A stretch of DNA of 64,000 bases from Actinobacteria bacterium RBG_16_68_21 (GCA_001767695.1 MELR01000015.1:39887-103886), one strand, 5' to 3'; positions 3,302 through 54,053 are shown, counted from the first letter of the stretch. The notes: generated by a model not told the origin, from the letters alone. Numbers and translations: made by a program.

Positions 3302-3343
3302 CGGCGGCTGAGGGGCCGGCCGCGGCGCGATAGCCTGAGCGGG

Positions 3344-35973: not shown

Positions 35974-36708
35974 ATGGCAACCACTGACGATCTGAGTTCG
36001 CAGCGGTTCTACCACGGTACGAAGGCCGACCTGAAGCCAGGGGACCTGATCGTGTCCGGCCAATCGCCCAACTCCGGTGAACAGGATCGGGCAACCGGCT
36101 ACGTCTACCTGACCGGCACCCTGGATGCGGCCGCCTGGGAAGCGGAGCTGGCACCCGGCGACGGTCCAGGCAGGATCTACATGGTCGAACCGACCGGCCC
36201 GATCATGGATGACCCGGACCTCACGGGTAAGAAGTATCCGGGTCCGGCGAAGTCATACCGCTCCCGAGAGCCGCTGCGGGTCACGGGTGAGGTCACGGAT
36301 TCGCAGGGGCGCCCGCTGCGGTTCTACCACGGCACGAAGGCTGACTTGAAGCCAGGGAACCTGATCGGGCCCGGCCACTCTCCCAACTTCGGTGAACAGG
36401 ATCGGGTAACGGACTACGTCTACCTGACCGGCACCCTGGATGCGGCAATCTGGGGGGCGGAGCTGGCACTTGGCGGTGGAGCGGGCAGGATCTACGAAGT
36501 GGAACCGACCGGCCCGATCATGGACGACCCCAATCTGACGAACATGAGGTATCGAGGCAATCCGACGAAGTCCTATCGCTCTCGAGAGCCGCTGCGGGTC
36601 ACGGGTGAGGTCACGGATTGGCAGGGGCACCCCCCGGAGACACTCCAGGCCATGAAGGACGGCCTGGAGCAACTCAAGAAGCTTGGTGTTGAGCCGATCG
36701 AGGACTGA
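35974..36708 (+). CDS. arr: Arr-family (NAD+:rifampin ADP-ribosyltransferase-like) protein. It contains two tandem Arr repeat units of about 105 aa each.
   Basis: RFYHGTKADLKPGDLI...YVYLTGTLDAAAWEAELA...RIYMVEPTGPIMDDPDLT...KSYRSREPLRVTGEVTD is repeated almost exactly from aa 117. The second copy ends ...DWQGHPPETLQAMKDGLEQLKKLGVEPIED, as in single-domain Arr proteins. The nucleotide repeats are 36007..36321 and 36322..36636. Confidence 0.75.
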   Translation: MATTDDLSSQRFYHGTKADLKPGDLIVSGQSPNSGEQDRATGYVYLTGTLDAAAWEAELAPGDGPGRIYMVEPTGPIMDDPDLTGKKYPGPAKSYRSREPLRVTGEVTDSQGRPLRFYHGTKADLKPGNLIGPGHSPNFGEQDRVTDYVYLTGTLDAAIWGAELALGGGAGRIYEVEPTGPIMDDPNLTNMRYRGNPTKSYRSREPLRVTGEVTDWQGHPPETLQAMKDGLEQLKKLGVEPIED

Positions 36709-36901
36709 GTCAAGCCGTCCTCTGATGACTGTGAGGATCACGTCCGCCGGCCGAGGGGACTGTTGCCTGTCGCACACCCTGCCCGAGGGTGCCGTCATCT
36801 GAAGGGGGTGTGCACCCAAGAACCGCCGCCCACGGCGTGGTCCCGGCACCGGTGGCGGTGCCGGGACGCGCTCGTCGAAGCCTACGAACGGGCTCCATCG
36901 G

Positions 36902-37735
36902 CTAACGGAACAGGTGCCTGCCGAGGAATGCGGTGATGTCACCGGCGTGGGGCAGAAAGCGGTCGAGGTCGCTGTGGCCGCCGCCGTCGACGATCAGCAC
37001 CTCGGCGTCGGGACGTGCCGCCGCCAACTGGTGGAGGTTCTCCAACGGCACCACCTGGTCGGCGGCGCCGTGCACCAGCAAGGTCGGGACCCGCACCAGA
37101 GGGATCCGGTTGCGGGGGGCGAAGTCCTCGAAAGGCTGGCCGATTGCCCTCTGCATGATGGCGAGGGCTGCGGCGCGCACCGGTCGCGGCGCCGACGCCA
37201 TCTGCTGGCGCATCAGCGCACCGGGATCTGCCGGCGACGCCACCGACACCAGGACCTGAAGTGCACCGCCCCGCGAGGCGCTGAGGATCGCTGCCCCGCC
37301 CCCGACCGAGTGGCCGACGACACCGATCGTGGTGACCTCCTCACGCCCCGAGAGCCAGCCGAGCGCCGCGTCGAGGTCGTCGGCGAAACGGGGCATCGAC
37401 ACGAACCGGCGACGATCCGAGAGGCCGTGGTTGCGGACGTCGAGGAACAGCGAGTGAAACCCGGCCCGGTGCAGATGGGGAGCCAGCGGGAGCATCAGGG
37501 ATGCGTTGCCGCCCCAGCCGTGAAGGACGACAACGGCGGGAGCGGAACCTGCGACCGGGATGAACCAGGCGTGGAGGCGGGGACCGCCCGGAGCCTGCAA
37601 CCACACCTCCTCCTCGGGAAGGCCGAGTGCGCTGGGGGCGGACACACCGCGAGCGACGCCAAGGCGGACGTGGTCGATGCGGTGGGGGGAGACCAACCAC
37701 AGCCACTTGCGCAGGCCGCGGAGTCGGGTGGTCAC
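36902..37735 (-). CDS. Alpha/beta-hydrolase fold protein.
   Basis: VVLHGWGGN and GHSVGG (nucleophile elbow). The GTG start overlaps the TetR stop (GTGA at 37732-37735). The longer track ORF would run through the TetR gene. Confidence 0.7.
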   Translation of the reverse strand: MTTRLRGLRKWLWLVSPHRIDHVRLGVARGVSAPSALGLPEEEVWLQAPGGPRLHAWFIPVAGSAPAVVVLHGWGGNASLMLPLAPHLHRAGFHSLFLDVRNHGLSDRRRFVSMPRFADDLDAALGWLSGREEVTTIGVVGHSVGGGAAILSASRGGALQVLVSVASPADPGALMRQQMASAPRPVRAAALAIMQRAIGQPFEDFAPRNRIPLVRVPTLLVHGAADQVVPLENLHQLAAARPDAEVLIVDGGGHSDLDRFLPHAGDITAFLGRHLFR

Positions 37736-38355
37736 GCCCGGGCGATCCCGACGTCGCCGACCTCGCCCAGGCCGGCGTCGAGGAGGTCGAAGCACCTGGC
37801 CATGAGGTCGGGTAGGGATGCCTGGCCGCCTCCGGCCAGCCACATGGCCATCGAGGCCCGCATGGCGGAGAGTGCTGCGCCGGCGAGCAGTCGGGGCACT
37901 ATTTGGAGGTCGGGGTCCGGCCTCAACCATCCGGCGACGATCCCGGCCACGGCGGCCTCCCACTCCGCCTGGAGCTTGAGGCTGCGGGCACCGACGGACG
38001 GCACCGTGGTGATGATCCGGAATCGACGCAGCATCTGCGCCCGCTCGCTCTCGTAGTCGGCCGACACGGCGACGAACGCCGCTCGCAGCGATCGCCATGG
38101 CGACTCGTCGGCGGGACCCTCCTCCAATTCCGATACCAACCGGCCCAGGCGGGCGGCGTAGTCGGCGAGGACCACGTCCTCCTTGGAGGGGAAGTAGTGG
38201 AAGAAGGTCCGAGGAGCGATGTCGGCGGCGGCGGCGACCTCGTCGACCGTGGTGCTGTTGAACCCTCGCTGCTCGAAGAGGTCGAGGGCGGCGCGCTCGA
38301 TGGCGCCCCGGGTGCGCGCCTTCTTGCGCTCGCGCAGGGTGGCGTCGCCGGACAT
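37732..38355 (-). CDS. TetR/AcrR family transcriptional regulator.
   Basis: RTRGAIERAALDLFEQRGFNSTTVDEVAAAADIAPRTFFHYFPSKED. Divergent from the MMPL gene at 38452. Confidence 0.8.
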   Translation of the reverse strand: MSGDATLRERKKARTRGAIERAALDLFEQRGFNSTTVDEVAAAADIAPRTFFHYFPSKEDVVLADYAARLGRLVSELEEGPADESPWRSLRAAFVAVSADYESERAQMLRRFRIITTVPSVGARSLKLQAEWEAAVAGIVAGWLRPDPDLQIVPRLLAGAALSAMRASMAMWLAGGGQASLPDLMARCFDLLDAGLGEVGDVGIARA

Positions 38356-38451
38356 GGGCTCAGAGTATCACGGATCGCTGCATGTCACGCATATTTGCGT
38401 TAACTGCGAAATTGCCTAGAGTGCACGCGACCTCGACACAAGGAACCGCAC

Positions 38452-40749
38452 GTGCTCGCTCGTCTCGGTCGCTTTGCCGCCGCCCACCCCTGGCGCTACG
38501 TCGCCGCCTGGATGCTCACCGCCGCCCTGCTGGTGGGCGGCGTGGTGACGGTCGGAGCGGCGTTCACTTCAAGAATCACCGCCCCGGCGTCGGAGAGCAG
38601 CGCCGGGCTCGACCTGCTGGCGAGCGAGTTCCCGGGCGCCGGCGGCGATGCCGGCTCGATCGTGTTCGTCGCCGAGCAGGGAGTCGAAGACCCCGAGGTG
38701 GCCTCCACCATGACCGGCCTCTTCGAGGCGGTGAAGGAGATCGATGGCGTCGTCAACGTGGTCAGCCCCTACTCCCCTGTGGGCGCCGGCCAGATCTCCG
38801 TCCTGGGCGACTCCGCCGGAAAGGTCGCCTACGCTCAATTGGCGCTCGAATCGGGCACCACCACCGACGACGGGGCGAGGATCTACGACGAGATCACCGC
38901 GCTCTCCCCCGACATCGCCGGGCTGGAGATCGCCCTCGGGGGCGACATGTTCCGCCACCGTGAACCCCCGAGCTCGGAGATGCTGGGACTGGCCTTCGCC
39001 ATCTTCGTGCTCATCCTCTCGTTCGGCTCCGTGCTGGCCATGGGACTGCCCATCGCCACCGCCCTGGCCGGGGTCGGGACCGGGGTGGCGGCGACCGCCT
39101 TGCTGAGCAACCTCATCGAGATGCCCGACTTCGCCGCCACGATCGGGGTGATGATCGGTCTCGGCGTGGGGATCGACTACGCCCTCTTCATCGTCACCCG
39201 GTACCAGCAGCACCTTGCCGCCGGAGCGTCGCCCCCCGAGTCGATGGCGGCAGCGCTCGACCGTGCTGGCCGGGCGGTGCTCTTTGCCGGGGTGACCGTG
39301 GTGGTCTCGCTCCTGGGCATGGTGCTGATGGGGGTCGGTTTCGTCACCGGCCTCGCCTTAGCCGCCGCCACGACAGTGGTACTCACCATGGCGGCGTCCG
39401 TCACGTTGCTCCCCGCCCTGGTCGGGCTGGCGGGACAGCGCATTCAGATCACCAGGTGGAGTGGCCTGATCGGCTCGCTCCTGGTCGCCGTCGCCATGAT
39501 CGGCGTCGCCCTCGGGGTGCCGGAGCTTCGCTTCGCCCTGGTCGCCGCGGTGGTGGTGCTGATCGCCGGCCGGTTCGGCAGCCCCCTCTCCAGGACGATC
39601 ACCCTGCGCAAGGAGAAGCCGCTCGAGGCCACCGCCTCGTACCGGTGGAGTCGCTTCGTGCAGCGGCGGGCGGCCATCATCACCGTCTCGGCGTCGCTGG
39701 TGCTGGCGATCGCCGCCCTCCCCTTGTTCTCGATCCAACTCGGGTTCACCGACGCCGGCAACGACCCGGAAGGCATTACGACCCGGCGAGCGTACGACCT
39801 GTTGGAGGCCGGATTCGGCGCCGGCGCCAACGGGCCACTGGTCCTGATCGCCACCCTCCCCGACGGTGCCGACCCGAGGGCGCTCCAGGGGGTGACGGCG
39901 ACCCTGGGCGAGGTGGAAGGCGTCGCCCAGGTGTCGGTGGGCATCCCCAACGACCCGCAGCAGCCCACCGCGATGCTGTGGCAGCTGACCCCCGAGACCG
40001 GACCGCAGGACGAGGCGACCACCTACCTGGTCCACCGGCTGCGCGACGAGGTGATCACCGGAATCGACGCCGACTTGGGCACTGAGATCCTGGTGGCCGG
40101 CTCGGTGGCGGCCAACATCGACTTCTCCGACTACCTGGCGGAGCGCATCTGGTACTTCTACGGAGCGGTGCTGCTGATCTCGTTCCTGTTCCTCTTGGCG
40201 GTGTTCCGTTCGGTGTTGGTGCCGTTGAAGGCGGTCTCCATGAACCTGCTGGCGATCGGCGCCGCCTACGGCGTGGTGGTGGCGGTGTTCCAGTGGGGCT
40301 GGGGAGGGTCGCTGCTCGGGATCGAGCCGGGCCCGATCGAGCCGTTTGTCCCGATGATGCTGTTCGCCATCGTCTTCGGGCTCTCCATGGACTACGAGGT
40401 GTTCCTCCTCACCCGGATCCGGGAGGAGTACGACCGGACCGCCGACAACACGAGTGCCGTCGCCGACGGGCTGGCGGCCACCGCCCGGGTGATCACCGCC
40501 GCCGCCCTGATCATGGTGTTCGTCTTCGCCTCCTTCGTGCTCGAAGACACGCGGACGGTCAAAGTCCTCGGCCTCGGACTGGCGGCGGCAGTAGCCATCG
40601 ATGCCACCGTTATCCGCATGCTGCTCGTCCCGGCGACCATGGAGCTGCTCGGCGACAGGAACTGGTGGATCCCGAAGTGGCTCGACCGTGTGCTACCTAA
40701 CCTGGTGGTGGAGCCGCGGAAGGTCTCCGCCGAGTCGCAAGCGGGGTGA
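38452..40749 (+). CDS. MMPL family (RND superfamily) transporter, second copy in the window.
   Basis: 765 aa. GVGIDYALFIVTRYQQ and GLSMDYEVFLLTRIREE. Confidence 0.85.
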   Translation: MLARLGRFAAAHPWRYVAAWMLTAALLVGGVVTVGAAFTSRITAPASESSAGLDLLASEFPGAGGDAGSIVFVAEQGVEDPEVASTMTGLFEAVKEIDGVVNVVSPYSPVGAGQISVLGDSAGKVAYAQLALESGTTTDDGARIYDEITALSPDIAGLEIALGGDMFRHREPPSSEMLGLAFAIFVLILSFGSVLAMGLPIATALAGVGTGVAATALLSNLIEMPDFAATIGVMIGLGVGIDYALFIVTRYQQHLAAGASPPESMAAALDRAGRAVLFAGVTVVVSLLGMVLMGVGFVTGLALAAATTVVLTMAASVTLLPALVGLAGQRIQITRWSGLIGSLLVAVAMIGVALGVPELRFALVAAVVVLIAGRFGSPLSRTITLRKEKPLEATASYRWSRFVQRRAAIITVSASLVLAIAALPLFSIQLGFTDAGNDPEGITTRRAYDLLEAGFGAGANGPLVLIATLPDGADPRALQGVTATLGEVEGVAQVSVGIPNDPQQPTAMLWQLTPETGPQDEATTYLVHRLRDEVITGIDADLGTEILVAGSVAANIDFSDYLAERIWYFYGAVLLISFLFLLAVFRSVLVPLKAVSMNLLAIGAAYGVVVAVFQWGWGGSLLGIEPGPIEPFVPMMLFAIVFGLSMDYEVFLLTRIREEYDRTADNTSAVADGLAATARVITAAALIMVFVFASFVLEDTRTVKVLGLGLAAAVAIDATVIRMLLVPATMELLGDRNWWIPKWLDRVLPNLVVEPRKVSAESQAG

Positions 40750-41016
40750 GGACGGTCATCGCCTCAGGGAGTTCCGACTTCAGCCGCAGCGCTCCGTTTG
40801 CCTCGGGAGCCACCCGGTGCCATCACGCTGCTCGATCATCACCCGGCCCTGGCGGTGCCCGTAGGCACCTCGGTGGACGAAGGCAACCTCGCTGGAGATC
40901 TCTGGCTCCATTTCTGGAGTGCCGGGTGGCACGAGATCATCGGCGCGTAGGATGAGTGCGTCGGCGGGCGATTGGACGGCTGCGTCGGGTACCTGGCGGC
41001 CTGCAGTTGGCCCCAC

Positions 41017-41619
41017 TCAGCCGCGCAACAGGCGAATCGCCTCCCTGCGAACCCTCGAAAGCACGTCGGGAAGCACCTTCCCAGCAAACGACTTGTCGTC
41101 CACAGCGTGCTCCGCTCGTTCTTCGAGCTTCTTCCAGTCGATGCGTTCGTAGGCCGCGACCCCCAGCCGGACCGCCTCGTCGAATGCCACCGGCTCTTCC
41201 CCAGTTGCCTGCAGGAGCCGATCCATGATCAGGTCGTTCAGCGAGATCACCGCCAGTTCTCCTGGTGCCAGGTCGATCACCTGCGGCCGTTCGGTGTCGA
41301 AGTCGCCCAAGCTGTCTCCAGGTACCTCGATCGCGAGTCTTTCCTCATCGTCGAAGGAGAACAACCAGCGCCGCCCGTCCTTCTTGAAGCCGAGTTCTCT
41401 GAGTGATCGGGCCTGGTCGGGCTTGCGATGCCCGACCAGATCGATGTCGGTGGGTCGATATGAGCCAGTGTGGAGCTCCACTGCCGCCCCACTCACGAGC
41501 ACCGCTCCCTCGAGGCCCGCGCTGGCGAAGGCTGCCGCGGTGAGCAGCTTCCGTCGAATGGAGTTCTGTGGCGCGTCTGACGCCCGTCGCAGCAGCTCGG
41601 TTGCCTGCGCGTCAGGCAC
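41017..41619 (-). CDS. Nucleotidyltransferase-fold protein. Candidate toxin or effector partner of the upstream XRE HTH.
   Basis: ELHTGSYRPTDIDLV fits the pol-beta-type hG[GS]x(5-13)DhD motif. The GTG start overlaps the stop of the HTH gene by 8 nt (GTGCCTGA). Confidence 0.5.
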   Translation of the reverse strand: MPDAQATELLRRASDAPQNSIRRKLLTAAAFASAGLEGAVLVSGAAVELHTGSYRPTDIDLVGHRKPDQARSLRELGFKKDGRRWLFSFDDEERLAIEVPGDSLGDFDTERPQVIDLAPGELAVISLNDLIMDRLLQATGEEPVAFDEAVRLGVAAYERIDWKKLEERAEHAVDDKSFAGKVLPDVLSRVRREAIRLLRG

Positions 41620-41986
41620 CGGCGTTCAACAGCGTTTGTTCGACTGTGATGTCGATCCCAAGACGCTGCCTCGCGTCGAGTCGCTCTTGCGGAGACGAAG
41701 CACCGAGTCCGGCCGCGACAAGTCGTGCGCGACCCCGCTCGGATGACGCGACAACCTCATCAATCGAGACCCGAGTGGTCCGAGGCACTAGTTGGATTTC
41801 GAGTCCCAGCGCATCCAACACCCTTTCGAGAGTGCTGAGGCGGAGGTCCACCTTGCCGCTCTCGATCTTGGAGAGGTTGGGAACAGCGATGCCTGACGCT
41901 CGAGATACCGCGGACTGTGTCAGTCCGGTGGCCTCTCGGGCCAGGCGCAGTCTGCTGGCAAGGTTGATTCTCAGGTCCTCTGTTAT
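41612..41986 (-). CDS. XRE (Cro/C1)-family HTH protein with a C-terminal extension. The start codon is uncertain.
   Basis: LASRLRLAREATGLTQSAVSRASGIAVPNLSKIESGK is a textbook XRE HTH. The frame is open up to a TGA at 42017-42019, but the first canonical start (GTG at 41851) lies after the HTH. An ATA, CTG or ATC start near 41970-41986 is therefore implied. Confidence 0.5.
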   Translation of the reverse strand: MTEDLRINLASRLRLAREATGLTQSAVSRASGIAVPNLSKIESGKVDLRLSTLERVLDALGLEIQLVPRTTRVSIDEVVASSERGRARLVAAGLGASSPQERLDARQRLGIDITVEQTLLNAGA

Positions 41987-41991
41987 GGAGT

Positions 41992-42020
41992 ACGCTAAGT
42001 TATCGAATAGTATAAGTCAA
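41992..42020 (-). promoter_or_regulatory. Putative sigma-70-type promoter: TTGACT - 17 nt - TAGCGT, in an AT-rich stretch.
   Basis: Reverse strand reads cTTGACTtatactattcgataactTAGCGTactccataacagaggacctgag. This is the most AT-rich 60 nt in the window. Confidence 0.35.
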
Positions 42021-42168
42021 GACCTGACTGGCTTCTCCCCGGGAGTGTGTGGGCAGACCTTGGCTGAGACGGCCAATCTCGTGTGCGCTTCCCGGACCCT
42101 GGCGACGCCTGCGGACCACACCAGATCGACGGTGCCATCCGAGGTCAGCCCGACGGCGAGCCAGGCTG

Positions 42169-42654
42169 TCAGCCCGCCGCCTTCTTCACGAGCGCGCCGA
42201 TCCGCTTCTCCTCGGCGGCGGTCAACTCCTTCAGTGCGAATGCGGTCGGCCACATGGCGCCTTCGTCGAGGTCTGCCTTGTCGCTGAACCCGAATGTCGC
42301 ATACCTCGTCTTGAACTTGTGTGCGCTTTGGTAGAAGCAAATGACTGTGCCGTCCTTGGCATACGCCGGCATCCCGTACCAGGTCTTCGGCGACAGAACT
42401 GGCGCGCTGGCCTTGACGATCGCATGGATCCGCTCGGCCATGGCGCGATCGGGTTGCGGCATCTCGGCTATCTTGGCGAGCACGTCGCTTTCTCCGTCCG
42501 CCTTGCCCGCGCCGCGGCGGGCGGCCGCCTTTTGCTCTTGGGCACGCTCCTTCATCGCGGCGCGTTCCTCGTCCGTGAACCCCTTGGACCCCCTGCCAGT
42601 TGTGCTCTTGGCGGGTCGCGGCGTGCCTCTTGTCGCAGGTTTTCTCTCAGCCAT
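42169..42654 (-). CDS. DUF1801 (YdhG-like) domain protein with a Lys/Arg-rich N-terminal extension.
   Basis: [35 protein letters not shown]. Confidence 0.55.
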
Positions 42655-43093
42655 TGCGATTCACCTCCGTGCGTCGAACGGGCACCACAGCTGCGCGGGC
42701 AGTGGGCGAAGGCGGTTGACGCTACTGCCTTGAGAGAGACCACACGGAGAGGGCGGTCACTGCGAGGCTCAGAAACCCGGTCAGATACCGGGGAGACACG
42801 CTCAGTGCCAACGCCCGTGCCGGCGCTCCGGTGTCACGATCCAACACCGACCGATGCGATGGGGTACGTCGCGGCTGCTCCAGCGGTCGACGGGAGTCGG
42901 CCATGGGTACGCCAAGCGGTCGCCCTCAACAGCTTCGGCAAGTCGAAGTCTTCGAAAAGAGCGAAGTCCCAGCAGGGTGTTGATTGTCTCCGCGTGAGGA
43001 CGCAGAGCCGCCAGGGTCGATCGCGCTGTTGGCTCGATCGACGCCGCGACCTCGTCGAAGGTCGGCTGTCTCGATTAACGTGCCGGTTCGCCC

Positions 43094-44056
43094 ATGATCC
43101 CGACCGAATGGCTGCTCGACTCCGATCCTGCGATCCGCTGGCAGGTGATGCGCGATCTCCTCGATGTCACTGAGACCGAGTGGGCAGCCGAGAGAGCCCG
43201 AGTGGAGAGGGAGGGATGGGGTGCCCGACTGCTTGCTCTCGAGGATGAGGATGGGCAGTGGGCCGGCGGTGCCTTCTTCCCCAGCGGTTTCGACTTCCGC
43301 GGGCCGGAGGCTGAGCCGGGTGCGGGCCAGCCCTGGACCACCACCACTCATGTGCTCACCCAGCTCCGGGAGTTCGGGCTCGACCCTCGATCGGCCCGTG
43401 CCCAACGAGCCGTGGAACTGATCGGCGTCAACTCCCGTTGGGACGAAGGCGGCCAGCCGTTCTGGGAAGGTGAGGTCGAGCCGTGCATCAACGGCAGGAC
43501 CGTTGCCGACGGTGCCTACTTCGGAGTCGAGGTGCGTCGGATCGTCGACCGACTGGTCGGGGAGAGGCTGAAGGACGGCGGCTGGAACTGCGAGGCCGAG
43601 AACGGTTCGGTTCGATCGTCGTTCGACACGACGATCAATGTCCTCGAGGGCCTCTTGGAGTATGAGCGGGTCACCGGTGGAACCCCCGATTCGCAGGCGG
43701 CACGCCGGTCCGGCGAGGAGTACTTGCTGGCACGGTCGCTGTTCAGGCGTCTCAGCACCGGCGAGCCCGCCGATGAGCGGTACCTGCGTTTCATCCATCC
43801 GTCCCGCTGGTTCTACGACGTGCTGCGCGGTCTGGACTACTTCCGATCCGCCGGCATCCTCATGGCGACGTCACCCGACTCGCGGCTCGCGGAGCCGATC
43901 GAGCACGTCCGCTCACGTCGCCGGGACGATGGCACCTGGGAGCTGGATTGGAATCCGACCGGGCGTGCGTGGTTCGAGGTCGACGATGGACCCGGCAAGC
44001 CTTCGCGTTGGGTGACCCTTCGGGCGCTCCGCGTCCTGAGGTGGTGGCAGGGTTAG
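43094..44056 (+). CDS. Alpha/alpha-toroid (prenyltransferase / terpene-cyclase-like) repeat protein.
   Basis: Recurrent DGxW modules, DGQWAGGAFFPSG, DGGWNCEAENGS and DGTWELDWNPTG, like the QW repeats of squalene-cyclase and prenyltransferase beta-subunit folds. Confidence 0.45.
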   Translation: MIPTEWLLDSDPAIRWQVMRDLLDVTETEWAAERARVEREGWGARLLALEDEDGQWAGGAFFPSGFDFRGPEAEPGAGQPWTTTTHVLTQLREFGLDPRSARAQRAVELIGVNSRWDEGGQPFWEGEVEPCINGRTVADGAYFGVEVRRIVDRLVGERLKDGGWNCEAENGSVRSSFDTTINVLEGLLEYERVTGGTPDSQAARRSGEEYLLARSLFRRLSTGEPADERYLRFIHPSRWFYDVLRGLDYFRSAGILMATSPDSRLAEPIEHVRSRRRDDGTWELDWNPTGRAWFEVDDGPGKPSRWVTLRALRVLRWWQG

Positions 44057-44342
44057 GTCGCGGTCGATGTTCCCAGGGCCCGCGAGTGGGTGGCACGGGC
44101 AGGGCAGGCAGAGGCTCGTCAGCGTCCCTTGTCGTCCTCACGTCGCGGGGCGAGCCCGGCCTGTGCCTCCGAGTCCGGCGAGGAGTCCATTGATCATACC
44201 CGCACCGCGGTCCCCGTCGTCGGCCGTGAGAACCAGATCAGGACGATCGGCACGACGGATTCGCAGCGGGTTCCCGCCCCGCACGACGACGGCTCTGGTC
44301 CCGGGGCGCACCCGGTAGCCCTCACCGGAGCCGGGGCGGTAA

Positions 44343-44603
44343 CCAGCCTCCGCGTCTGCGATCGGGACCGGAATCGCCGAACCGGTCGCGTCCGCACTGT
44401 TCTCCCCATTCGTGCATACCCCATCCCCGACACGGGCGCGCACCTCAATCGGTCTCGGATTGTCGGTGTCGCGCCGTCTGGCACGCGCCATGCAGGGCAC
44501 TCTGACCTACCGCCACGATGACGGCGAGACGGTATTCGACCTCACCCTCCCCACCGCGGTCGGAAGCACCCCACGGACAGCAGGGGCGGGTATCAGAGCC
44601 TGA
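44343..44603 (+). pseudogene. Remnant of the C-terminus of a sensor histidine kinase (HATPase_c G2-box end).
   Basis: GTGIAEPVASALFSPFVHTPSPTRARTSIGLGLSVSRRLARAMQGTLTYRHDDGETVFDLTLP. The open frame is only 86 codons and begins right after a TAA. No HisKA or sensor region lies upstream. Confidence 0.45.
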
Positions 44604-44978
44604 TCGCTCGACCTCCCAAGCCACCGTCGGTTACTCACCGAGCAGACCCAACAACAAACTCGACGGGGACCGGACGCACAAGAGGCAGCTCGTCGTCGCG
44701 GTGGTTTCCGAGTCGCGGTTGGCATCAATGCCGCTGCCGGGTCAAAGGCCGCTTTCGTAGATGGCCGTGACCAGACCCACTCGGTCGTCGCGGGCCTCAC
44801 CACCCTGGGGCATCCCTTGATGGCAGCGCCCCCATGCAGATGGCGAAACATGTCGTCGTGAGTCCCCGCCGGTTGAAGGGCCGGACGCTCATGCCCCAAG
44901 TAGGGGGCCGCCGGTCAGTTCCTACTCGGGCCTTGGTGGATAACGTGCCGTGATCGATGTCGATGGAGGCGTCCGATC

Positions 44979-45311
44979 ATGACTGTCGACCAGTATCTGG
45001 ATGGGGCCCCTGAACCGCAGCGGAGCACTCTGATCCGGCTTCGCGCCACCCTGCGGGAGATCCTGCCCGATGCGACCGAAGGGATCTCCTACGGTGTGCC
45101 GGCATTCCTGGTCGAAGGGACGCCGATCGCCGGCTACGCCTACCTCAAGGATTCCTGCACTTACTACCCGCACTCGGGTTCGGTGCTCCCCGGGCTCGCC
45201 GCGGAGTTGGAGTCCTACCAGTGGTCGAAGGGGGCCTTGCGGTTCCCGATCGACCAACCCCTTCCCCGCGCATTGCTGGCGCGTCTCGTGGAGGCCAGAC
45301 TCCGACTGTGA
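44979..45311 (+). CDS. DUF1801 (YdhG-like) domain protein.
   Basis: ISYGVPAFLVEGTPIAGYAYLKDSCTYYPHSG. Confidence 0.6.
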   Translation: MTVDQYLDGAPEPQRSTLIRLRATLREILPDATEGISYGVPAFLVEGTPIAGYAYLKDSCTYYPHSGSVLPGLAAELESYQWSKGALRFPIDQPLPRALLARLVEARLRL

Positions 45312-45407
45312 GTGGCAATGGCAGGGTGGCGGCGGCGTGCCCATCACCTCGGAAAGGCGCTCCGTCGTAGGCTCACTGGGGGAGCCGGCGGATTCCAGGA
45401 GGCAATC

Positions 45408-46160
45408 ATGATCGACATGTCGGTCGTCGTCACCGGCAGCAGCAGCGGCCTCGGCGCCCACATCACCCGTCGCCTGGTAGGCGAGGGAGCCCGGGTGGTG
45501 GCGGCGGCCCGGCGCCTCGACCGGCTCACTGCCTTGGTCGATGAACTCACCGATGCCCCCGGCCGCGTCGTCGCCGTGCAGGCCGACGTGACCAGTGCCG
45601 AGGACGCCGCCAGGATCGCCCAGACGGCGGCCGATACCTTCGGCGGAATCGATGCGCTGGTCAACAACGCGGGCATGGAGGTCCGGGGATCCATCGAGAA
45701 TCTGGAAGAGGCGGACTTCGAGTCGATGCTGCGAACCAATGTCATCGGGTACTACCTGTGCACCCGGGCGGCGCTGCCCTACCTGAAGCGAAACGGTGGG
45801 TCGGTGGTCAACATCGGCTCGACGGTGGTGGCCCGTGCTCCCCGTGACCGCTTCGGCTACGTGGCTACGAAGGGTGCCGTCGATGCGATGACGCGGGCAC
45901 TGGCCGGGGACCTGGGCAAACATCGCATCCGGGTCAACGTGGTCCGGCCGGGGCTGGTGCCTTCCGAGTTTCGCGGCGGCAGCGAGGAGGAGGCCGAAGA
46001 GCTGCTGGCGAGGATCGCTCCGCCGATGCAGGCGCTGCAGGCGGTCGGCGCCGGAGCCGACGTCGCCGCCATCGTGGCTTTCCTGGTCTCCGCCGATTCC
46101 GCCTGGATGACCGGGGCCGTCATCGATGTCGACGGCGGGTACGCCCTGGGGACCCCCTAA
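45408..46160 (+). CDS. SDR family NAD(P)-dependent oxidoreductase.
   Basis: An AGGAGG RBS lies 6 nt before the ATG. TGSSSGLGAHITRRL is the Rossmann motif and NNAG follows. Confidence 0.8.
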   Translation: MIDMSVVVTGSSSGLGAHITRRLVGEGARVVAAARRLDRLTALVDELTDAPGRVVAVQADVTSAEDAARIAQTAADTFGGIDALVNNAGMEVRGSIENLEEADFESMLRTNVIGYYLCTRAALPYLKRNGGSVVNIGSTVVARAPRDRFGYVATKGAVDAMTRALAGDLGKHRIRVNVVRPGLVPSEFRGGSEEEAEELLARIAPPMQALQAVGAGADVAAIVAFLVSADSAWMTGAVIDVDGGYALGTP

Positions 46161-46267
46161 CCGGCACTTGTGGCAGGCGGGCGTCGTGTAGGCGATCACC
46201 GGCTGAGGCCAACCGACTGTTCCGAGCCCTCGCCGACGCCACGCGGCGAGACATCCTCGTTCGGACG

Positions 46268-46534
46268 ATGCAGGAGGAGCACTCGGTCTCGGCTCTCGCC
46301 GGTCGCTATCCGATGAGCTTCGCCGCAGTTCAGAAACACGTCGCCGTGCTGGAACACGCCGGACTGGTGAGCAAGAGGAGAGAGGGTCGCGAGCAACTGG
46401 TACCCGGCAACGTCAATGCGGTGCTTGCGGCGCGACGTCTCCTCGACCAACTGGAAGCGGTGTGGCGCGACCGCCTCGACCGAATCGGCGAGATCCTCGC
46501 CACCGACACCCAGAATGAAGGAGCCGACGCATGA
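46268..46534 (+). CDS. ArsR/SmtB family regulator. As written, the N-terminal helix lies in another frame, so the gene is apparently frameshifted.
   Basis: In-frame: MQEEHSVSALAGRYPMSFAAVQKHVAVLEHAGLVSKRR. Upstream, in the -1 frame (46214-46260), it reads RLFRALADATRRDILV, the conserved ArsR helix. An extra T in gtttcgg near 46258-46261 separates the two frames. Confidence 0.5.
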   Translation: MQEEHSVSALAGRYPMSFAAVQKHVAVLEHAGLVSKRREGREQLVPGNVNAVLAARRLLDQLEAVWRDRLDRIGEILATDTQNEGADA

Positions 46535-47031
46535 CGGTGATCAGCATCGACAAGGACCCCGGGGCAATGACGATGACCATCGTCGCCGAATTCGACGCCC
46601 CCGCACGGCGCGTCTGGGAGGTGTGGGCGAACCCTCGCCAGTTGGAGAAGTGGTGGGGGCCGCCGACGTACCCGGCGACGGTCGTCGATCATGACCTCTC
46701 CCCGGGGGGAAAGGTCGGCTACTTCATGACCGGCCCCGAGGGAGACCGCCACCGGGGTTGGTGGCGCATCCTCATGGTCGACGGCCCGCATCGCCTCGAG
46801 TTCGAGGACGGTTTCGCCGACGAGGCGGGCACGCCCGACCCGGCCATGCCGACGACGACCGCCCGTGTGTCGCTCAGCGAACAGCCGGGTGGCGGTACCC
46901 GCATGACCATCGAGACGACCTTCCCCTCCCTGGAGGCGATGGAACAGCTGATCGCGATGGGCATGGAGGAGGGCATCGGCTTGGCGGTGGGTCAGATCGA
47001 CGGGCTCCTCCGAGCCGCACCCAACGGGTGA
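46531..47031 (+). CDS. SRPBCC / AHSA1 (activator of Hsp90 ATPase homologue-like) domain protein.
   Basis: ATGA overlap with the ArsR gene. FDAPARRVWEVWANPRQLEKWWGP. Confidence 0.75.
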   Translation: MTVISIDKDPGAMTMTIVAEFDAPARRVWEVWANPRQLEKWWGPPTYPATVVDHDLSPGGKVGYFMTGPEGDRHRGWWRILMVDGPHRLEFEDGFADEAGTPDPAMPTTTARVSLSEQPGGGTRMTIETTFPSLEAMEQLIAMGMEEGIGLAVGQIDGLLRAAPNG

Positions 47032-47101
47032 CCCTTCGGTCGTGGCACTCGCGTGTCGCTGACACGACGCAATCGTCACTCGCAATCGCCGACGATTCGG
47101 A

Positions 47102-47458
47102 TCACTCGCCGGCGTCGATGACGCAGAAGCGGTTGCCTTCCGGGTCGGCGAGGATGACATAGTCGGCATCCGCCGGTCGTTTGTCCCAGTGCACCTCGGT
47201 GGCGCCGAGCGTGATCAGCCGTGCGACCTCGGCGGGCTGATCGTCGGCATACAGGTCGAGGTGAATGCGCGGCGGAGTCGGCGCTTCCGAGTGATGCATG
47301 TCGAGCGACAGATTGGGTCCCACTCCGTCGCGGGGACGCAGCAAGACGAAGTCGTCACTGTCATCCTGGCGCGCCACGTAGTCGAGGGCAGCCGCCCAGA
47401 ACTCGGTCTGGCGCCGCAGGTCATCGACGCGCAGAACGATCGAACCCACCCGGATCAT
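47102..47458 (-). CDS. VOC (glyoxalase/bleomycin resistance) family protein.
   Basis: MIRVGSIVLRVDDLRRQTEFWAAALDY...IHLDLYADD...PEGNRFCVI. Confidence 0.7.
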   Translation of the reverse strand: MIRVGSIVLRVDDLRRQTEFWAAALDYVARQDDSDDFVLLRPRDGVGPNLSLDMHHSEAPTPPRIHLDLYADDQPAEVARLITLGATEVHWDKRPADADYVILADPEGNRFCVIDAGE

Positions 47459-47836
47459 GGCTTTCGATGGTATCCCTGGCAGGGACTTCGGGTTCCCGCG
47501 GAGGCCCGAGGTGGCGACAGCTTGGTGGCACCCAGAAGATCGCCACCAGAGTGCGTGATCGCATCGGTGTGCTTTGGCGTTGCCGGAGTGCTCTTTGCGA
47601 TCACAGCCCCGCGCAACGCCGAACCCGGGTCGGGCCTCAATCATATGCTGTCCGTGCTGCTGGGCGTCGCCGGGTCCATCGTGGCCTCGTCGTTCGCCCT
47701 GAGCGTTACAGGCAGGTACCTCGGAGTCGGACGGACCGACAACCTCCCAGTCGGTGTTCCCGGTGCCAATCCTCGGCGGGCACCACCACGACTGACCCCC
47801 TCGGGTGATCGATGCCTGTCCCGAGGGGGTCGGTCG

Positions 47837-49558
47837 ATGGTCGCTCGCCTGTTGCTCGCAACCTTAGAGGCGAGGCGGCCACGGCCGGAAGACGCTGCCT
47901 CGACTTGGGCCGGCGTGACGCGTGGCCAAGTGGGGGATTCGGCTACCTTGACGATCGTGGCCGACGGCACCTGTTCCGAACCCACTCGGGGGCGCGACCG
48001 CGCGCTTCTCGCGGCCGCCATGTCCCTCGTCGTCCCCGGTGCGGGGCAGTGGTTCGCCGGTCGGCGGCGTCGTGCCGTTCCCTTTCTCGCGGGCACTGCC
48101 GCCCTGCTGGGCATAGCCATCGTGATGGTCGCCAGGGGGGAGGTCTATGCCCTGCGGCTGCTGGTGCAGCCGCGGTGGCTGACGACCTTCATCGTTGCCG
48201 ACGTCGCCGTGGCCGTCTTCCGCCTGGTGGCGGCGATCGACGCCTACGTGGTGGCCGCGGCCGGAACGGGGTTCAACCGTCCCGCGGTGCATGCCGCGGT
48301 TGTCGTGGTCCTCGTCGGCGCGTTGGTCGTTCCCCATCTCTTGCTCGGTGCCCGTGCCGCACGGCTGCTCGATCTCCTCGACCGGGTTTTCGTCGAAGAC
48401 ACCCAAGTCACCACCGATCAGCTACGGGCCCGTTTCTCCGCCGAGGCGGCGCGCAGCGGCGGTGTGATCCCGACCGTGTCGACCTCGACCACCAGCGCGG
48501 GTACGGACCTGTATCCCGAGTATCCCGATGGGCTCCCGCTTCCCGTGCGCACCCACTACGGAGAGGTGAGCGAAGCCGTCATCGAACCTATCGACATCGA
48601 CCGGATCACGGTGCTGCTGGTTGGCGGCGACGCCGGGCCGGGGAGGACGGGGCTGCGCACCGACGTCATGGTCCTCGCCAGCCTGGACCCGGTCACGCAC
48701 CAGGCCGTCCTGGTGAGCGTCTCCCGCGAGCTCACCGGTTTCCTGCTTCCCAGGGAATTGCAGCAGCCGCTCGAGTGGCGTCAGGACACGATCTGGTCGC
48801 TCGCCGAGCAGGCGGAGAAGAACGGCACGTCCCAGGCGACAGATCCCCTCCCCGCGGAACGAGATCCCGGAGTGTGGCTTGACCGAATCAACGCCATCTA
48901 CCCGTTCAGTCAAACCTTCGACCGCCTGTACCCGGGTGGTGTCGATCCCGGAATGGAGGCCCTTCGCCAGACCTTCCAGCAGACGCTAGGTGTCCGCATC
49001 GACTTCTACGTGCTGGTGGACTTCGCCGGATTCGTGGACGTCATCGACGCCATCGGTGGGATCGACGTCACCGCCCACGAGCCGATGCACGTGCTCTTCT
49101 CGCCCGCCAAGCCGGGGGAGGACGAGACCCTGATCGACATCGAGCCGGGAAGGCACCACTTCGACGGGCGCACCGCGCTCGCCTATGTGCGGAATCGCAG
49201 TGACTCGAGCGACATCGTGCGAACCCGCCGCCAGCGCTGCCTGCTGCGCGAAGTCGCCGCCCGACTGGACCCGCTGACCGTGCTGGTCAACTTCGATGCC
49301 CTCGCCACCGCGGTGGAGGACCACACCACCACGAATCTCCCGTTGCGGCTTCTCCCCGACCTGATCGGCGCGGTCGCCGAACTCGACCCCGGTCAGATCG
49401 GTACCTGGGCGATCCAACAAGGTTCGTCGGCGGACGGAAAGGTGGACTACCGGAATCTGCCGATCATCGATGTGGCGGGGACCCGGAGCCGGTTGGCGGC
49501 GATCCTGAGAGGCGTCGAGGAAGGTGCCCCGGTCGTGGGTGCCGACGAGTGCGGGTAG
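47837..49558 (+). CDS. LytR-CpsA-Psr (LCP) family cell-envelope phosphotransferase with a multi-TM N-terminus. Start uncertain.
   Basis: ITVLLVGGDAGPGRTGLRTDVMVLASLDP and YVRNRSDSSDIVRTRRQR are LCP core motifs. The open frame continues upstream to about 47540 with further hydrophobic segments. Confidence 0.7.
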   Translation: MVARLLLATLEARRPRPEDAASTWAGVTRGQVGDSATLTIVADGTCSEPTRGRDRALLAAAMSLVVPGAGQWFAGRRRRAVPFLAGTAALLGIAIVMVARGEVYALRLLVQPRWLTTFIVADVAVAVFRLVAAIDAYVVAAAGTGFNRPAVHAAVVVVLVGALVVPHLLLGARAARLLDLLDRVFVEDTQVTTDQLRARFSAEAARSGGVIPTVSTSTTSAGTDLYPEYPDGLPLPVRTHYGEVSEAVIEPIDIDRITVLLVGGDAGPGRTGLRTDVMVLASLDPVTHQAVLVSVSRELTGFLLPRELQQPLEWRQDTIWSLAEQAEKNGTSQATDPLPAERDPGVWLDRINAIYPFSQTFDRLYPGGVDPGMEALRQTFQQTLGVRIDFYVLVDFAGFVDVIDAIGGIDVTAHEPMHVLFSPAKPGEDETLIDIEPGRHHFDGRTALAYVRNRSDSSDIVRTRRQRCLLREVAARLDPLTVLVNFDALATAVEDHTTTNLPLRLLPDLIGAVAELDPGQIGTWAIQQGSSADGKVDYRNLPIIDVAGTRSRLAAILRGVEEGAPVVGADECG

Positions 49559-49677
49559 CAGGTGATCGGGTGCGGTCTCAGCGGGACTGTTTGGGATCGT
49601 TGGAGGCGCGACGCGACCACAGGGAGGAACCCGCCCGCCTCCGGGTCGGATGATCCTAGGCACCGAAGCGGCGCCAC

Positions 49678-49857
49678 TCAGACGGTGGATCGCTGCCTGA
49701 TCGGTTCGAGGTAGGCGCCGGTGACCGACGAGAGGTGCCCGTCGTCCCAGCGGATCTCGACCGTGGGGCCGCGCACCGCGACCACGCTCCCCTGACGGGG
49801 AATCTGACCGACGCGCTTGGTGAGCTCCTGGACCCGCATGCCCTTTCGGAGTCTCAT
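49678..49857 (-). CDS. DUF1918-like small protein (59 aa). Not in the supplied ORF track.
   Basis: MRLRKGMRVQELTKRVGQIPRQGSVVAVRGPTVEIRWDDGHLSSVTGAYLEPIRQRSTV. ATG to TGA. It fits the gap between the LCP and malic enzyme genes. Confidence 0.45.
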   Translation of the reverse strand: MRLRKGMRVQELTKRVGQIPRQGSVVAVRGPTVEIRWDDGHLSSVTGAYLEPIRQRSTV

Positions 49858-49905
49858 GGCGCCAGCGTAGGACCGGGCAGCCGAGCCCGGCGAGGGTCCT
49901 TCGGC

Positions 49906-51606
49906 CTAGACCGCCCGATACGGCAGGTAGCAGGGCCTCCACATGGCATGGTCCATCGCTGCGGGAAGATCCTCGATCGGATCGGCCACGCCTTCCGCGA
50001 TCGCCGCCTCCGCCACCTTGACTGCCACGTGACGGGACACCGACCGCACCTCGGTGATCGGCGGGAACAGCGCTCCCACCTTGAGGCAGTCGTCGGTCAC
50101 CGAGTCGGCCAGCGCCCGGGCGGCGGCGAGGAACATCCCCACCGTTACCATTCGTGCCCGGCTCACCATGGTCCCCAGGCCCACTCCGGGGAAGACGAAC
50201 ACGTTGTTCGCCTGCCCGATGCGGTGGGTGGCTCCGTCGAAGACGACGTCATCGAAGGGGCTTCCGGTCGCCACCAGGGCACGGCCCTGGGACCAAGGGA
50301 TGATGTCGGCAGGTTTGGCCTCCGTCATGGCCGTCGGGTTGGACAGCGGCATGATGATCGGTCGGTCATGGACGGCCGAGATCGCCTCCACGATCGAACG
50401 GGTGAACGACCCCGGAGTCCCGGTGACCCCGATCAGGATCGACGGCAGGTGATTGCGAACACAGGTCTCCAGGTCGACGTAGTCGCCGCGTGCTCCCCAC
50501 CCGGCAATCTGCGCGGGGTCGATGGCGAATTCACGTTTCCGGTCGACCAGATCGGTCCGGTCGGCAACCAGCAATCCGCGGCTATCGGTCATCAGGACCC
50601 GCTGCTTGGCCTCGGCGGAGCTGAGTCCGTCTTCGACCATCGCCGCGGTGATCTGGCGGGCGATGCCGATTCCGGCCGAGCCCGATCCGGCAATGAGTAC
50701 CCGCTGTCGGGAGATGCCCTCGCCGAGCAGCCGCATCGCCGCGTAGAGTCCGCCCACAACCATCGCCGCGGTCCCCTGGATGTCGTCGTTGAACGACGGC
50801 AGGGTCTCCCGGTAGGTGTCGAGATGGTGGAAGGACGTGCCGTTGGCGAAGTCCTCCCACTGGAGGATCGCCCCCGGGTACAGCGTCCGCACCGCGGTGA
50901 CCAGCTCGTCGACCAGCTCCCAGTAGGTGTCGCCCCGCACCCGATGACCCGGGTATCCGAGGTAGAGCGGATCGTCGTGGAGGTCCTGGTTGTCGGTTCC
51001 GACGTCCAGGGACACCGGCAGGCACACCGCCGGGTGGATTCCGGCGGCCGCCGTGTAGAGCGCGAGCTTGCCGATCGGGATGCCCATCCCGCCGGCACCC
51101 TGATCACCGATGCCGAGGATGCGCTCGTTGTCGGTGACCACGATCACCTTGGCGTCGGCGACCCCGCTGTTGCGGAGCCGGGCCGCCACCCATCCGAAGT
51201 CGTCGGGGGTGATGTACACCCCGCGGGCGCGGCGGAAGATGTGGCTCCAGGTGCGGCACGCCTCGGCGACGGTTGGCGTGTAGATGAGCGGGACGGTCTC
51301 CTCGAGGTTCTCGGCGACAAGGCGGTAGAAGAGGTGTTCGTTGCGATCGTGAAGGCTTGCCAGATAGATGTGCTTCTGCAGGTTGGTGTCCTTGGCCCGC
51401 ATCTGGTCGAGGCACCGCGCAACCTGCTGCTCGTGGGTCGAGACGTGGCTGGGAAGGAGTCCGGCGAGACCGAGGGTTAGCCGCTCATCGAGGGGGAATG
51501 CGGTTCCCTTGTTGAGCAGAGGATCCTCGAGCACCTGCCGACCCCGCTCGACGACCGGCAAGTACTCCTGGCCGGTCTCAGGGTCAAAAAGGGGTTGGTA
51601 GCGCAT
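49906..51606 (-). CDS. NAD(P)-dependent malic enzyme.
   Basis: LNKGTAFPLDER, YTPTVAEAC, GIGDQGAGGMGIPIGKLALYTAAAGI. 566 aa. Confidence 0.9.
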   Translation of the reverse strand: MRYQPLFDPETGQEYLPVVERGRQVLEDPLLNKGTAFPLDERLTLGLAGLLPSHVSTHEQQVARCLDQMRAKDTNLQKHIYLASLHDRNEHLFYRLVAENLEETVPLIYTPTVAEACRTWSHIFRRARGVYITPDDFGWVAARLRNSGVADAKVIVVTDNERILGIGDQGAGGMGIPIGKLALYTAAAGIHPAVCLPVSLDVGTDNQDLHDDPLYLGYPGHRVRGDTYWELVDELVTAVRTLYPGAILQWEDFANGTSFHHLDTYRETLPSFNDDIQGTAAMVVGGLYAAMRLLGEGISRQRVLIAGSGSAGIGIARQITAAMVEDGLSSAEAKQRVLMTDSRGLLVADRTDLVDRKREFAIDPAQIAGWGARGDYVDLETCVRNHLPSILIGVTGTPGSFTRSIVEAISAVHDRPIIMPLSNPTAMTEAKPADIIPWSQGRALVATGSPFDDVVFDGATHRIGQANNVFVFPGVGLGTMVSRARMVTVGMFLAAARALADSVTDDCLKVGALFPPITEVRSVSRHVAVKVAEAAIAEGVADPIEDLPAAMDHAMWRPCYLPYRAV

Positions 51607-51673
51607 GTCTCCTTCACCCTACGCCGGGGGCCTCGGGTTCGCACGGGCATTTCGTCCTACGGCGATCGGTCGG

Positions 51674-52297: not shown

Positions 52298-52406
52298 TCC
52301 GCCACCCCAGAACCCGGGAATGTCACGTCCCCGGTCTCTGGCCCGGGGACGTGACTGGGTCGGAGGGTTCGCCGTGGGCGTCCCTCACTCCGCTGGCGGG
52401 AATCTA

Positions 52407-53363: not shown

Positions 53364-53476
53364 GGTGGGGATCTTGGAACGATCTCACCGCCTTGGCAAT
53401 CGGGGTTCGGAGGCGGTTATCGCCCACTAGCGGCGCCGGCCGCCTTAGATTGGCGGACCCACCAACCGGAGACACC

Positions 53477-54049: not shown

Positions 54050-54053
54050 TGCG

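Follow-up and report, generated by a model that had tools for sequence, protein, structure and literature searches.

A 64-kb stretch of DNA (the window) from the metagenome-assembled genome (MAG) RBG_16_68_21, which belongs to an uncultured Acidimicrobiia-like actinobacterium, contains a gene-poor patch at positions 40750 to 44980. The patch is bounded on the left by the gene of an MMPL transporter, which ends at 40749 on the plus strand and is nearest to those of Acidimicrobiia/Ilumatobacteraceae bins (73% identity to the best species representative, at most 57% to the others), and on the right by an SDR gene at 45408 to 46160 on the plus strand. From left to right, it carries a pair of genes encoding a nucleotidyltransferase-fold protein and an XRE-family helix-turn-helix (HTH) protein, a gene encoding a 161-amino-acid (aa) DUF1801-type protein, a gene encoding a 320-aa alpha/alpha-toroid protein, the remnant of a histidine kinase gene and, at its right edge, a second DUF1801 gene encoding 110 aa. 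Four of these genes, encoding the transferase, the 161-aa protein, the 320-aa protein, and the 110-aa protein, are intact and conserved elsewhere, and the kinase remnant is the only certain pseudogene in the patch. The patch is probably (with a likelihood of roughly 70%) a small accessory region built piecemeal by horizontal gain and local deletion, rather than a uniform graveyard of genes.

The layout of the patch was established from a list of open reading frames (ORFs) in six frames and a plot of codon-phase G+C content. The G+C content of the patch is 65.4%, compared with 68.1% for the whole window, and ranks sixth lowest among 598 sliding windows of equal size. The coding fraction comes from a rough gene finder that relies on third-position G+C and that missed the HTH gene because it has no canonical start codon; the value is 0.49, or 0.57 with the HTH gene counted, the minimum among 4.2-kb windows (median, 0.83). 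A reading of the DNA made from sequence alone (the sequence-only reading) had described the patch as much poorer in genes than the rest of the window, which agrees with these values. The gaps between genes measure 267 nucleotides (nt) (between convergent gene ends), 200 nt (containing the HTH promoter), 439 nt (between divergent genes), and 922 nt, and only the last, which holds the kinase remnant, is clearly abnormal in size. The sparseness of genes is due mostly to this 922-nt stretch and to the 439-nt divergent spacer. The third-position G+C of the patch genes ranges from 0.66 to 0.80, compared with 0.92 for the MMPL gene and 0.86 to 0.88 for the SDR and AHSA1 genes, which is consistent with a foreign origin of the patch genes. 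The patch lacks the marks of a classical genomic island (a tRNA or tmRNA target, an integrase, and flanking direct repeats): no tRNA gene was found across the 64 kb, no integrase or transposase ORF was found in the patch, and the only repeats were short ones at chance level.

The 320-aa protein, named squalene cyclase by NCBI, is encoded by an intact gene at 43094 to 44056 on the plus strand. It has at least 8,000 homologues, the best 120 of which are 73% to 100% identical and count among them proteins of Rhizobium jaguaris, Ensifer, Sinorhizobium, and Chelativorans; proteins of Acidimicrobiia, Rhizobium, Ensifer, and Chelativorans share 73% to 79% identity. An alignment of 43 sequences of the family contains 97 invariant columns, all 97 of which are kept in the window copy; C131, C166, D51-x-D53-G (in EDEDGQW), and a DGGWNC motif are among the invariant features. 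The description of this protein as poorly conserved in the sequence-only reading was therefore wrong. The gene occurs as a singleton in unrelated contexts, including those of an Acidimicrobiia relative, Rhizobium jaguaris, and plasmids of Pararhizobium and Mycolicibacterium. An identity of about 75% across Acidimicrobiia and Rhizobiales is unusually strong for an uncharacterized singleton gene that is also plasmid borne.

No sequence match to the 320-aa protein was found in Pfam, NCBIfam, PADLOC, or the PDB. AlphaFold2 modeled it as a toroid made up entirely of helices (pTM, 0.82; mean pLDDT, 75.8), four loops being of low confidence; the model shows the alpha/alpha-toroid that characterizes class II terpene cyclases, in line with the fold proposed from the sequence. 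The top Foldseek matches were the monodomain type II terpene cyclase MstE (E value, 1.7e-4; probability, 1.0), an Actinoplanes protein, drimenyl-diphosphate synthase, and squalene-hopene cyclase (SHC), with template modeling (TM) scores of about 0.45 to 0.5 for MstE, drimenyl-diphosphate synthase, and SHC. The protein shares with MstE (PDB 6sbb) and the SHCs a toroid fold of about 320 to 350 residues and repeats of the DGGW/DGxW type. However, the resemblance amounts to a TM score of only about 0.45 and an identity of about 16%; cyclase/prenyltransferase repeats are lacking, the gene has no isoprenoid-pathway neighbors, and toroids of thioester-domain proteins and glycoside hydrolases score nearly equally. 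Across the 43 family members, the Pfam models SQHop_cyclase and Prenyltrans gave no match other than one at an E value of 0.2. The DxDD motif of the cyclases is also absent from the family, the nearest counterpart being the invariant D51-E-D53-G54.

Both DUF1801 genes recognized in the sequence-only reading are intact. The 161-aa protein (42169 to 42654, minus strand), which has a basic N-terminal tail, scores 22.4 bits against Pfam PF08818, below the gathering cutoff of 27.2. The gene nevertheless shares 73% to 78% DNA identity over about 415 nt with annotated DUF1801 genes on replicons of Deinococcus, Streptomyces, and Embleya, including Streptomyces and Deinococcus plasmids, and it shows a clear codon-phase G+C signal. 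The 110-aa protein (44979 to 45311, plus strand) scores 50.0 bits against the same model (E value, 3.9e-13; cutoff, 27.2). Among DUF1801 (YdhG-like) proteins, the 110-aa copy is thus a standard member, whereas the 161-aa copy belongs to a divergent subgroup that carries a basic extension at the N terminus. A plus-strand ORF of 212 to 239 aa in this part of the patch (41568 to 42287; 41649 to 42287 in the public call), called as a gene in the conspecific contig L004, was rejected as a mere shadow, on the opposite strand, of the HTH and DUF1801 genes.

The gene pair at 41017 to 41968 on the minus strand, which the sequence-only reading had called toxin-antitoxin (TA)-like, consists of an XRE-family HTH gene (41612 to 41968, minus strand; 118 codons; putative antitoxin or repressor) followed by the gene of a 200-aa MenT/AbiEii-like nucleotidyltransferase-fold protein (41017 to 41619, minus strand; putative toxin). 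A scan for ORFs with canonical starts shortens the HTH gene to 79 codons; its true extent is 118 codons from an ATC at 41968, overlapping the transferase start by 8 nt. The HTH protein has a complete Cro/C1-type HTH (46.6 bits for HTH_31, from residue 3; 43.1 bits for HTH_3), and its best NCBIfam match is the Y4mF/HipB antitoxin model TIGR03070, at 46.5 bits, below the cutoff of 71.65. Upstream lies a promoter-like element (41992 to 42020, minus strand), read by eye as TTGACT, 17 nt, and TAGCGT and containing the operator-like motif TTCGATAAC; a strict sigma-70 consensus scan did not report this element (0 promoters). The two promoter hexamers and the TTCGATAAC motif are kept nearly base for base at loci L173 and L183. 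An HTH gene of 118 to 133 codons precedes the transferase gene at five loci (L173, L174 to L179, L180, L183, and the window), the neighborhoods of which are all different. The two genes overlap by 8 to 20 nt in the window, L173, L174 to L179, and L180, and in L183 the HTH gene is immediately upstream. The candidate antitoxin gene is found immediately upstream of its partner in a single operon, as in MenT/AbiEii systems, and as judged from these loci the XRE-HTH and transferase genes form a conserved, mobile, translationally overlapping two-gene operon that is probably an autoregulated module. Since the overlapping pair and its promoter are conserved in varied contexts, TA-like is a fair label.

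About 100 full-length homologues of the 200-aa protein were found, all in Actinomycetota/Acidimicrobiia metagenome bins, and none of them has a Pfam domain. In a 45-member alignment, G44, D58, D60, and E98 are invariant, a pattern like that of pol-beta nucleotidyltransferase motifs I and II (hG[GS]-x9-13-Dh[DE]h plus a third acidic residue). The window transferase is full length and keeps the catalytic acidic residues. The C-terminal half of the family has no invariant Lys; D133, R134, A138, and T139 are invariant there and might be the counterpart of MenT motifs III and IV. The AlphaFold2 model (pLDDT, 92.8) has a bilobed nucleotidyltransferase fold like that of MenT structures, and Foldseek matched it to the MenAT1 complex with an E value of 8e-4. 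The Pfam AbiEii model PF08843 gave no match for the window transferase and matched 8 of the 45 family members at E values of 0.005 or worse, below threshold; DUF6036 matched 20 of the 45 at 0.012 or worse, also below threshold; and no PADLOC model matched the pair. MenT toxins belong to the AbiEii-like enzymes and act by extending the 3' ends of tRNAs and blocking their aminoacylation (PMC7450476, PMC10435456), and the C-terminal motifs III and IV of MenT3 hold the catalytic residues K189 and D211 (PMC7450476). As suggested by fold and gene arrangement, the pair may work, or may once have worked, as an autoregulated TA-type module. If it resembled MenT in action, the transferase would modify the 3' ends of tRNAs, while the HTH protein would both repress the conserved promoter and counteract the toxin.

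The pair differs from the known MenAT and AbiE systems (the DUF1814 toxins MenT1 to MenT4 of M. tuberculosis and AbiEii of Streptococcus agalactiae) in several respects. Neither the AbiEii Pfam model nor any PADLOC model gives a significant match to it, and the MenT3 motifs III and IV, which carry the catalytic Lys and Asp, were not identified in the window transferase. The antitoxins of those systems are MazE-like (MenA1), COG5340 (AbiEi/MenA3), or COG4861 proteins, whereas the partner in the window is an XRE-HTH protein. In addition, the window transferase carries the substitution G43S, and its partner lacks a canonical start codon. With XRE/HipB-type antitoxins, the HTH protein shares the N-terminal Cro/C1-type HTH, the first position in the operon, and a repeated ATAAC-type motif in the promoter; however, it scores below the curated cutoffs of the specific antitoxin families, its C-terminal 55 or so residues match nothing known, and its gene starts with ATC.

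Some features of the pair suggest decay. The start codon of the HTH gene is GTG or ATG in L173, L174, L180, and L183 but ATC in the window and in L004, and the codon two positions upstream is ATG in L183 and CTG in the window. The ATC is preceded, at a distance of 7 nt, by the Shine-Dalgarno sequence GAGGA, so weak initiation is possible. Motif I of the window transferase reads S43-G44, and the window protein alone among the 45 has Ser at this position, G43 being present in 44 of 44 homologues. Three further changes, H84R, G92E, and T145A, affect sites that are at least 90% conserved. The pair seems to be losing function in the window lineage, and the sequence changes would fit a course in which the toxin was inactivated first and the antitoxin was then free to decay.

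The histidine kinase remnant (44315 to 44603, plus strand) comprises the end of the ATP-binding domain, with the G1, F, and G2 boxes, and the C-terminal tail. The sequence-only reading had recognized a kinase C-terminus in an 86-codon frame, without a sensor or HisKA part. This stop-to-stop frame (44343 to 44603) reads ...AIGTGIAEPVASALFSPFVHTPSPTRARTSIGLGLSVSRRLARAMQGTLTYRHDDGETVFDLTLPTAVGS... and matches Pfam HATPase_c with an E value of 1e-5; the 63-codon GTG sub-ORF within it (44412 to 44603) scores 26.2 bits against the same model. The homology continues upstream in a different reading frame (...HPVALTGAGAVTSLRVCDR), which extends the remnant to 44315 across a frameshift. Joining the frames at about 44362 to 44364 restores the G1 box D-R-G-T-G-I and raises the HATPase_c match to 43.2 bits (E value, 6e-11), covering positions 35 to 109 of the 111 in the model. 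The frameshift thus sits inside the D-x-G-x-G of the G1 box, and the G+C phase changes frame there too. A phmmer search of 1.84 billion cluster representatives gave 2,839 matches to the remnant, the top one falling at the C-terminus of a PAS-type kinase of 700 aa (62% identity; E value, 3.5e-20), and the best matches are the C-termini of kinases of 350 to 900 aa. By tblastn, residues 614 to 699 alone of the 700-aa kinase P0223 align to the window (59% identity over 86 residues; E value, 6e-23). The similarity is far beyond chance and points to the C-terminus (the last 85 or so codons) of a large sensor histidine kinase.

The rest of the kinase was not detected. A kinase-core hidden Markov model (HMM) of 303 nodes, built from 88 of the phmmer relatives, matched the window at nodes 234 to 301 with 100 bits and, after repair of the frameshift, at nodes 217 to 301 with 112 bits; nodes 1 to 216 had no match in any frame of 43700 to 44700. 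The C-terminal piece was the sole match in the window to three full-length relatives by tblastn, and the H-box, N-box, HisKA/DHp, and sensor domains were not found with the HMM in all frames or with the full-length relatives. No response regulator remnant was found nearby by Pfam searches of the gap frames, with full-length relatives, or with the custom HMM. A word-indexed homologue search with the repaired fragment gave no match at E values of ≤1e-3. A functional sensor kinase has an H-box domain and a complete HATPase_c in one frame with a start, neither of which is present here. Because the H-box, N-box, and sensor are missing, a frameshift interrupts the G1 box, and the full frame lacks a start codon, the remnant is a pseudogene. 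It shares with other pseudogene remnants of two-component kinases the C-terminal HATPase_c piece with the G1, F, and G2 boxes, the frameshift, the loss of the N-terminal parts, and the oversized intergenic setting, and has nothing unusual among them. The kinase may have been lost by deletion, possibly tied to the arrival of the toroid gene directly upstream, and the remainder of the gene would be gone or decayed past recognition. Since the collections searched contain no syntenic relatives, the lost kinase and regulator cannot be reconstructed.

That the kinase-derived frame, or its GTG sub-ORF, is instead a genuine small protein is barely credible. The frame is open over 86 codons and identical in three conspecific contigs, and kinase-tail proteins of 63 to 130 aa, such as P0225, occur among the database matches. 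However, identity among strains that are 99.7% identical is uninformative about selection, the G1 and F boxes are missing from the GTG sub-ORF, and the homology running upstream in another frame marks a frameshifted gene. The full frame has no start codon, and the best matches are the ends of much longer kinases. Conservation of such a protein in syntenic relatives found no support, where the only collinear sequences are conspecific (99.7% identity) and the nearest other relatives differ in gene order even at the flanks. Many database proteins of 63 to 130 aa consist of the tail of this kinase subfamily alone (P0225, for example, has 85 aa and is 55% identical to the remnant); most of these short entries are probably truncated calls at contig ends, and similar remnants may exist elsewhere.

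Other candidates around the remnant were rejected. A minus-strand ORF of 117 to 120 aa (44138 to 44500; 44138 to 44491 in the public call) runs opposite to the strand with the kinase homology, its codon phase disagrees with the G+C phase at 44195 to 44315, and it has no Pfam match. In L086, an intact response regulator gene and a gene for a 393-aa kinase (2876 to 4731) lie 3.3 kb upstream of the closest relative (79% identity) of the toroid gene, and this two-component pair is unrelated in sequence to the remnant.

The remaining sequence of the patch consists of the divergent intergenic spacer at 42655 to 43093 (439 nt), which has no coding or RNA signal, a 258-nt stretch that separates the toroid gene from the kinase remnant (44057 to 44314), which has a weak codon-phase signal and no recognizable homology, and a noncoding spacer of 375 nt upstream of the second DUF1801 gene (44604 to 44978). 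Codon-phase G+C gave no stable signal in 42655 to 43093; at 44195 to 44315, the phase-1 G+C is 0.78 to 0.84, in the same frame as the upstream part of the kinase remnant. No Pfam match was found for 14 stop-to-stop frames from the four gaps, and a terminator consensus scan returned three sites resembling terminators (2.0 expected), each of them within a DUF1801 gene. An SDR-like IDIDHG peptide on the minus strand (44930 to 44976) was judged to be a chance match. The stretches 42655 to 43093 and 44057 to 44978, the latter apart from the kinase remnant, therefore hold no convincing ORF, as had been read from the sequence.

Functional noncoding elements, such as small RNAs or riboswitches, might be expected in spacers as unusually long as 439 and 375 nt, and a conserved promoter/operator does lie upstream of the HTH gene. 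However, no Rfam family was found in the patch at E values of ≤1, and the folding z-scores (-1.24 and -0.78 for 42655 to 43093; -0.02 and -1.23 for 44604 to 44978) lie within 1.3 standard deviations of shuffled controls on both strands. The gap sequences resemble nothing in the fetched loci except the conspecific contigs and the TA promoter, and such elements in the long gaps are highly improbable.

Conspecific contigs from three other samples (assemblies MEGAHIT ERZ27256843, JGI 3300030613, and Logan SRR8538899) cover 36455 to 43001 and 43038 to 54056 at 99.6% to 99.9% identity without any indels, and both the kinase remnant and the ATC codon are present in them. Each half of the patch is thus validated by conspecific contigs, which do not inform on selection: they differ from the window by 0 to 3 single-nucleotide polymorphisms (SNPs) per patch gene and by at most 6 in the flanking MMPL gene, too few for selection tests. 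Beyond the species level, the searched collections yielded no collinear relatives, and this holds even for the MMPL and SDR genes at the flanks. A scan of the genome collection with the MMPL protein returned 80 loci (the best, L006, at 73% identity), none with the patch genes or the flanking genes of the window; a scan of metagenomes with the SDR protein returned one relative (L093, 76%) with unrelated neighbors; and exact-protein lookups returned only conspecific contigs or homologues in other contexts.

The sequence-only reading had described the patch as a region of gene flux and decay, with small, decayed, and poorly conserved genes. Gene flux is supported by the occurrence of the pair in five unrelated neighborhoods, the varied contexts of the 320-aa gene, and the low G+C content. 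Decay is firm for the truncated and frameshifted kinase remnant only and is suggested for the pair by the ATC codon and by G43S with its three accompanying changes. As a description of the genes in general, "decayed and poorly conserved" does not hold, since four ORFs have their full length and are well conserved in other genomes, and it is mistaken for the 161-aa DUF1801 gene and the 200-aa protein family as well. An interval decaying as a whole, with small genes that are mostly remnants or poorly conserved ORFs, would explain why the coding density is the lowest in the window and the G+C content nearly so, and would account for the one clear pseudogene, the HTH gene without a canonical start, and the unusual substitutions of the transferase. 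It is largely refuted by the conservation data and thus improbable: the 320-aa protein of a family of at least 8,000 members keeps every invariant position at 73% to 79% identity, the 161-aa gene shares 73% to 78% DNA identity with genes from other phyla, the transferase is not truncated and retains the catalytic acidic residues, and the 110-aa protein scores 50 bits. In addition, all four genes show a coding-phase G+C signal, and no frameshifts or premature stops were seen in comparison with orthologues.

Several points weigh against the reading of piecemeal gain and local deletion. The evidence for decay of the TA-like pair is small and no more than suggestive. With the L183 copy of the transferase (88% identical) used to polarize the changes, the window lineage had 11 private substitutions versus 4 (4 versus 1 at conserved sites), an asymmetry that is not significant (one-sided binomial P of about 0.06). 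Three other members of the family deviate at as many or more conserved sites, both frames of the pair remain open, and an ATC codon can start translation at low efficiency. A toxin function of the transferase would follow from fold and gene arrangement only, in a family that remains below the AbiEii threshold. Since no relative has a conserved gene order, neither acquisition nor deletion can be polarized. The join at 43001 to 43038 is spanned by the window contig alone, without an independent assembly.

This last point bears on whether the patch is partly an assembly artifact, its left half (the MMPL gene, the TA pair, and the 161-aa DUF1801 gene) being misjoined to its right half (the toroid gene, the kinase remnant, the 110-aa DUF1801 gene, and the SDR gene). 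The window comes from a MAG, and the contigs of the three other assemblies, made with different assemblers, end at 43000/43001 or begin at 43038 to 43074. However, the same two samples contain both halves, at an equal identity of about 99.7%, and the contig ends face each other at a distance of 36 to 73 nt (all within 75 nt), as in a local break and unlike the ends of unrelated loci. Five of the few SNPs relative to the window cluster at 42949 to 43073, a density able on its own to break de Bruijn graphs, and the breakpoint sequence is not repeated anywhere else in the window. The contig breaks are likely due to a strain-variable spot, a chimeric join is less likely, and an artifact of this kind is unlikely overall. 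Accessory genes gained piecemeal and thinned by local deletion remain the preferred account, which makes the patch an ordinary outcome of gene gain and loss.

Some features outside the patch genes were also observed. The frame of the MMPL gene remains open for 66 codons past its stop (40750 to 40947), with moderately raised third-position G+C; the C-terminal tail of MMPL is unconserved in the 73%-identical orthologue, so this open frame is probably due to chance. The SDR gene has two possible starts, a GTG at 45312, which abuts the DUF1801 stop, and an ATG at 45408; the latter is likely, since both the public call and the 76%-identical L093 homologue begin at the ATG of MIDxSV.... A tandem duplication of about 315 nt, the two copies of which are 79% to 84% identical, lies at 35999 to 36670 within an ORF at 35974 to 36708. 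The left end of the conspecific contig L004 (36455) falls inside this duplication, which is probably the reason for the contig break.

The patch shows in textbook fashion how local gene density falls in a high-G+C genome when accessory genes, a selfish two-gene module, and a pseudogene accumulate between core genes. It also illustrates how scans for canonical starts and automatic callers misannotate such regions, with the HTH gene shortened or left uncalled owing to its ATC start, antisense ORFs called, and a gene called across the kinase remnant. Mild novelty is limited to two families that lack a profile model, the MenT-like transferases and the very large toroid family. That the pair is a new MenT-like TA family and the 320-aa protein an uncharacterized mobile monodomain toroid enzyme, both families being undescribed, is a tentative joint proposal with somewhat less than an even chance. 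If it is true, the family of the pair would be one limited so far to Acidimicrobiia/Actinomycetota metagenome bins and missed by Pfam, NCBIfam, and PADLOC models, and the 320-aa protein would be an enzyme kept about 75% identical between actinobacteria and Rhizobiales. With a mutated toxin motif and a lost antitoxin start codon, the window pair may capture a TA-type module early in its inactivation.

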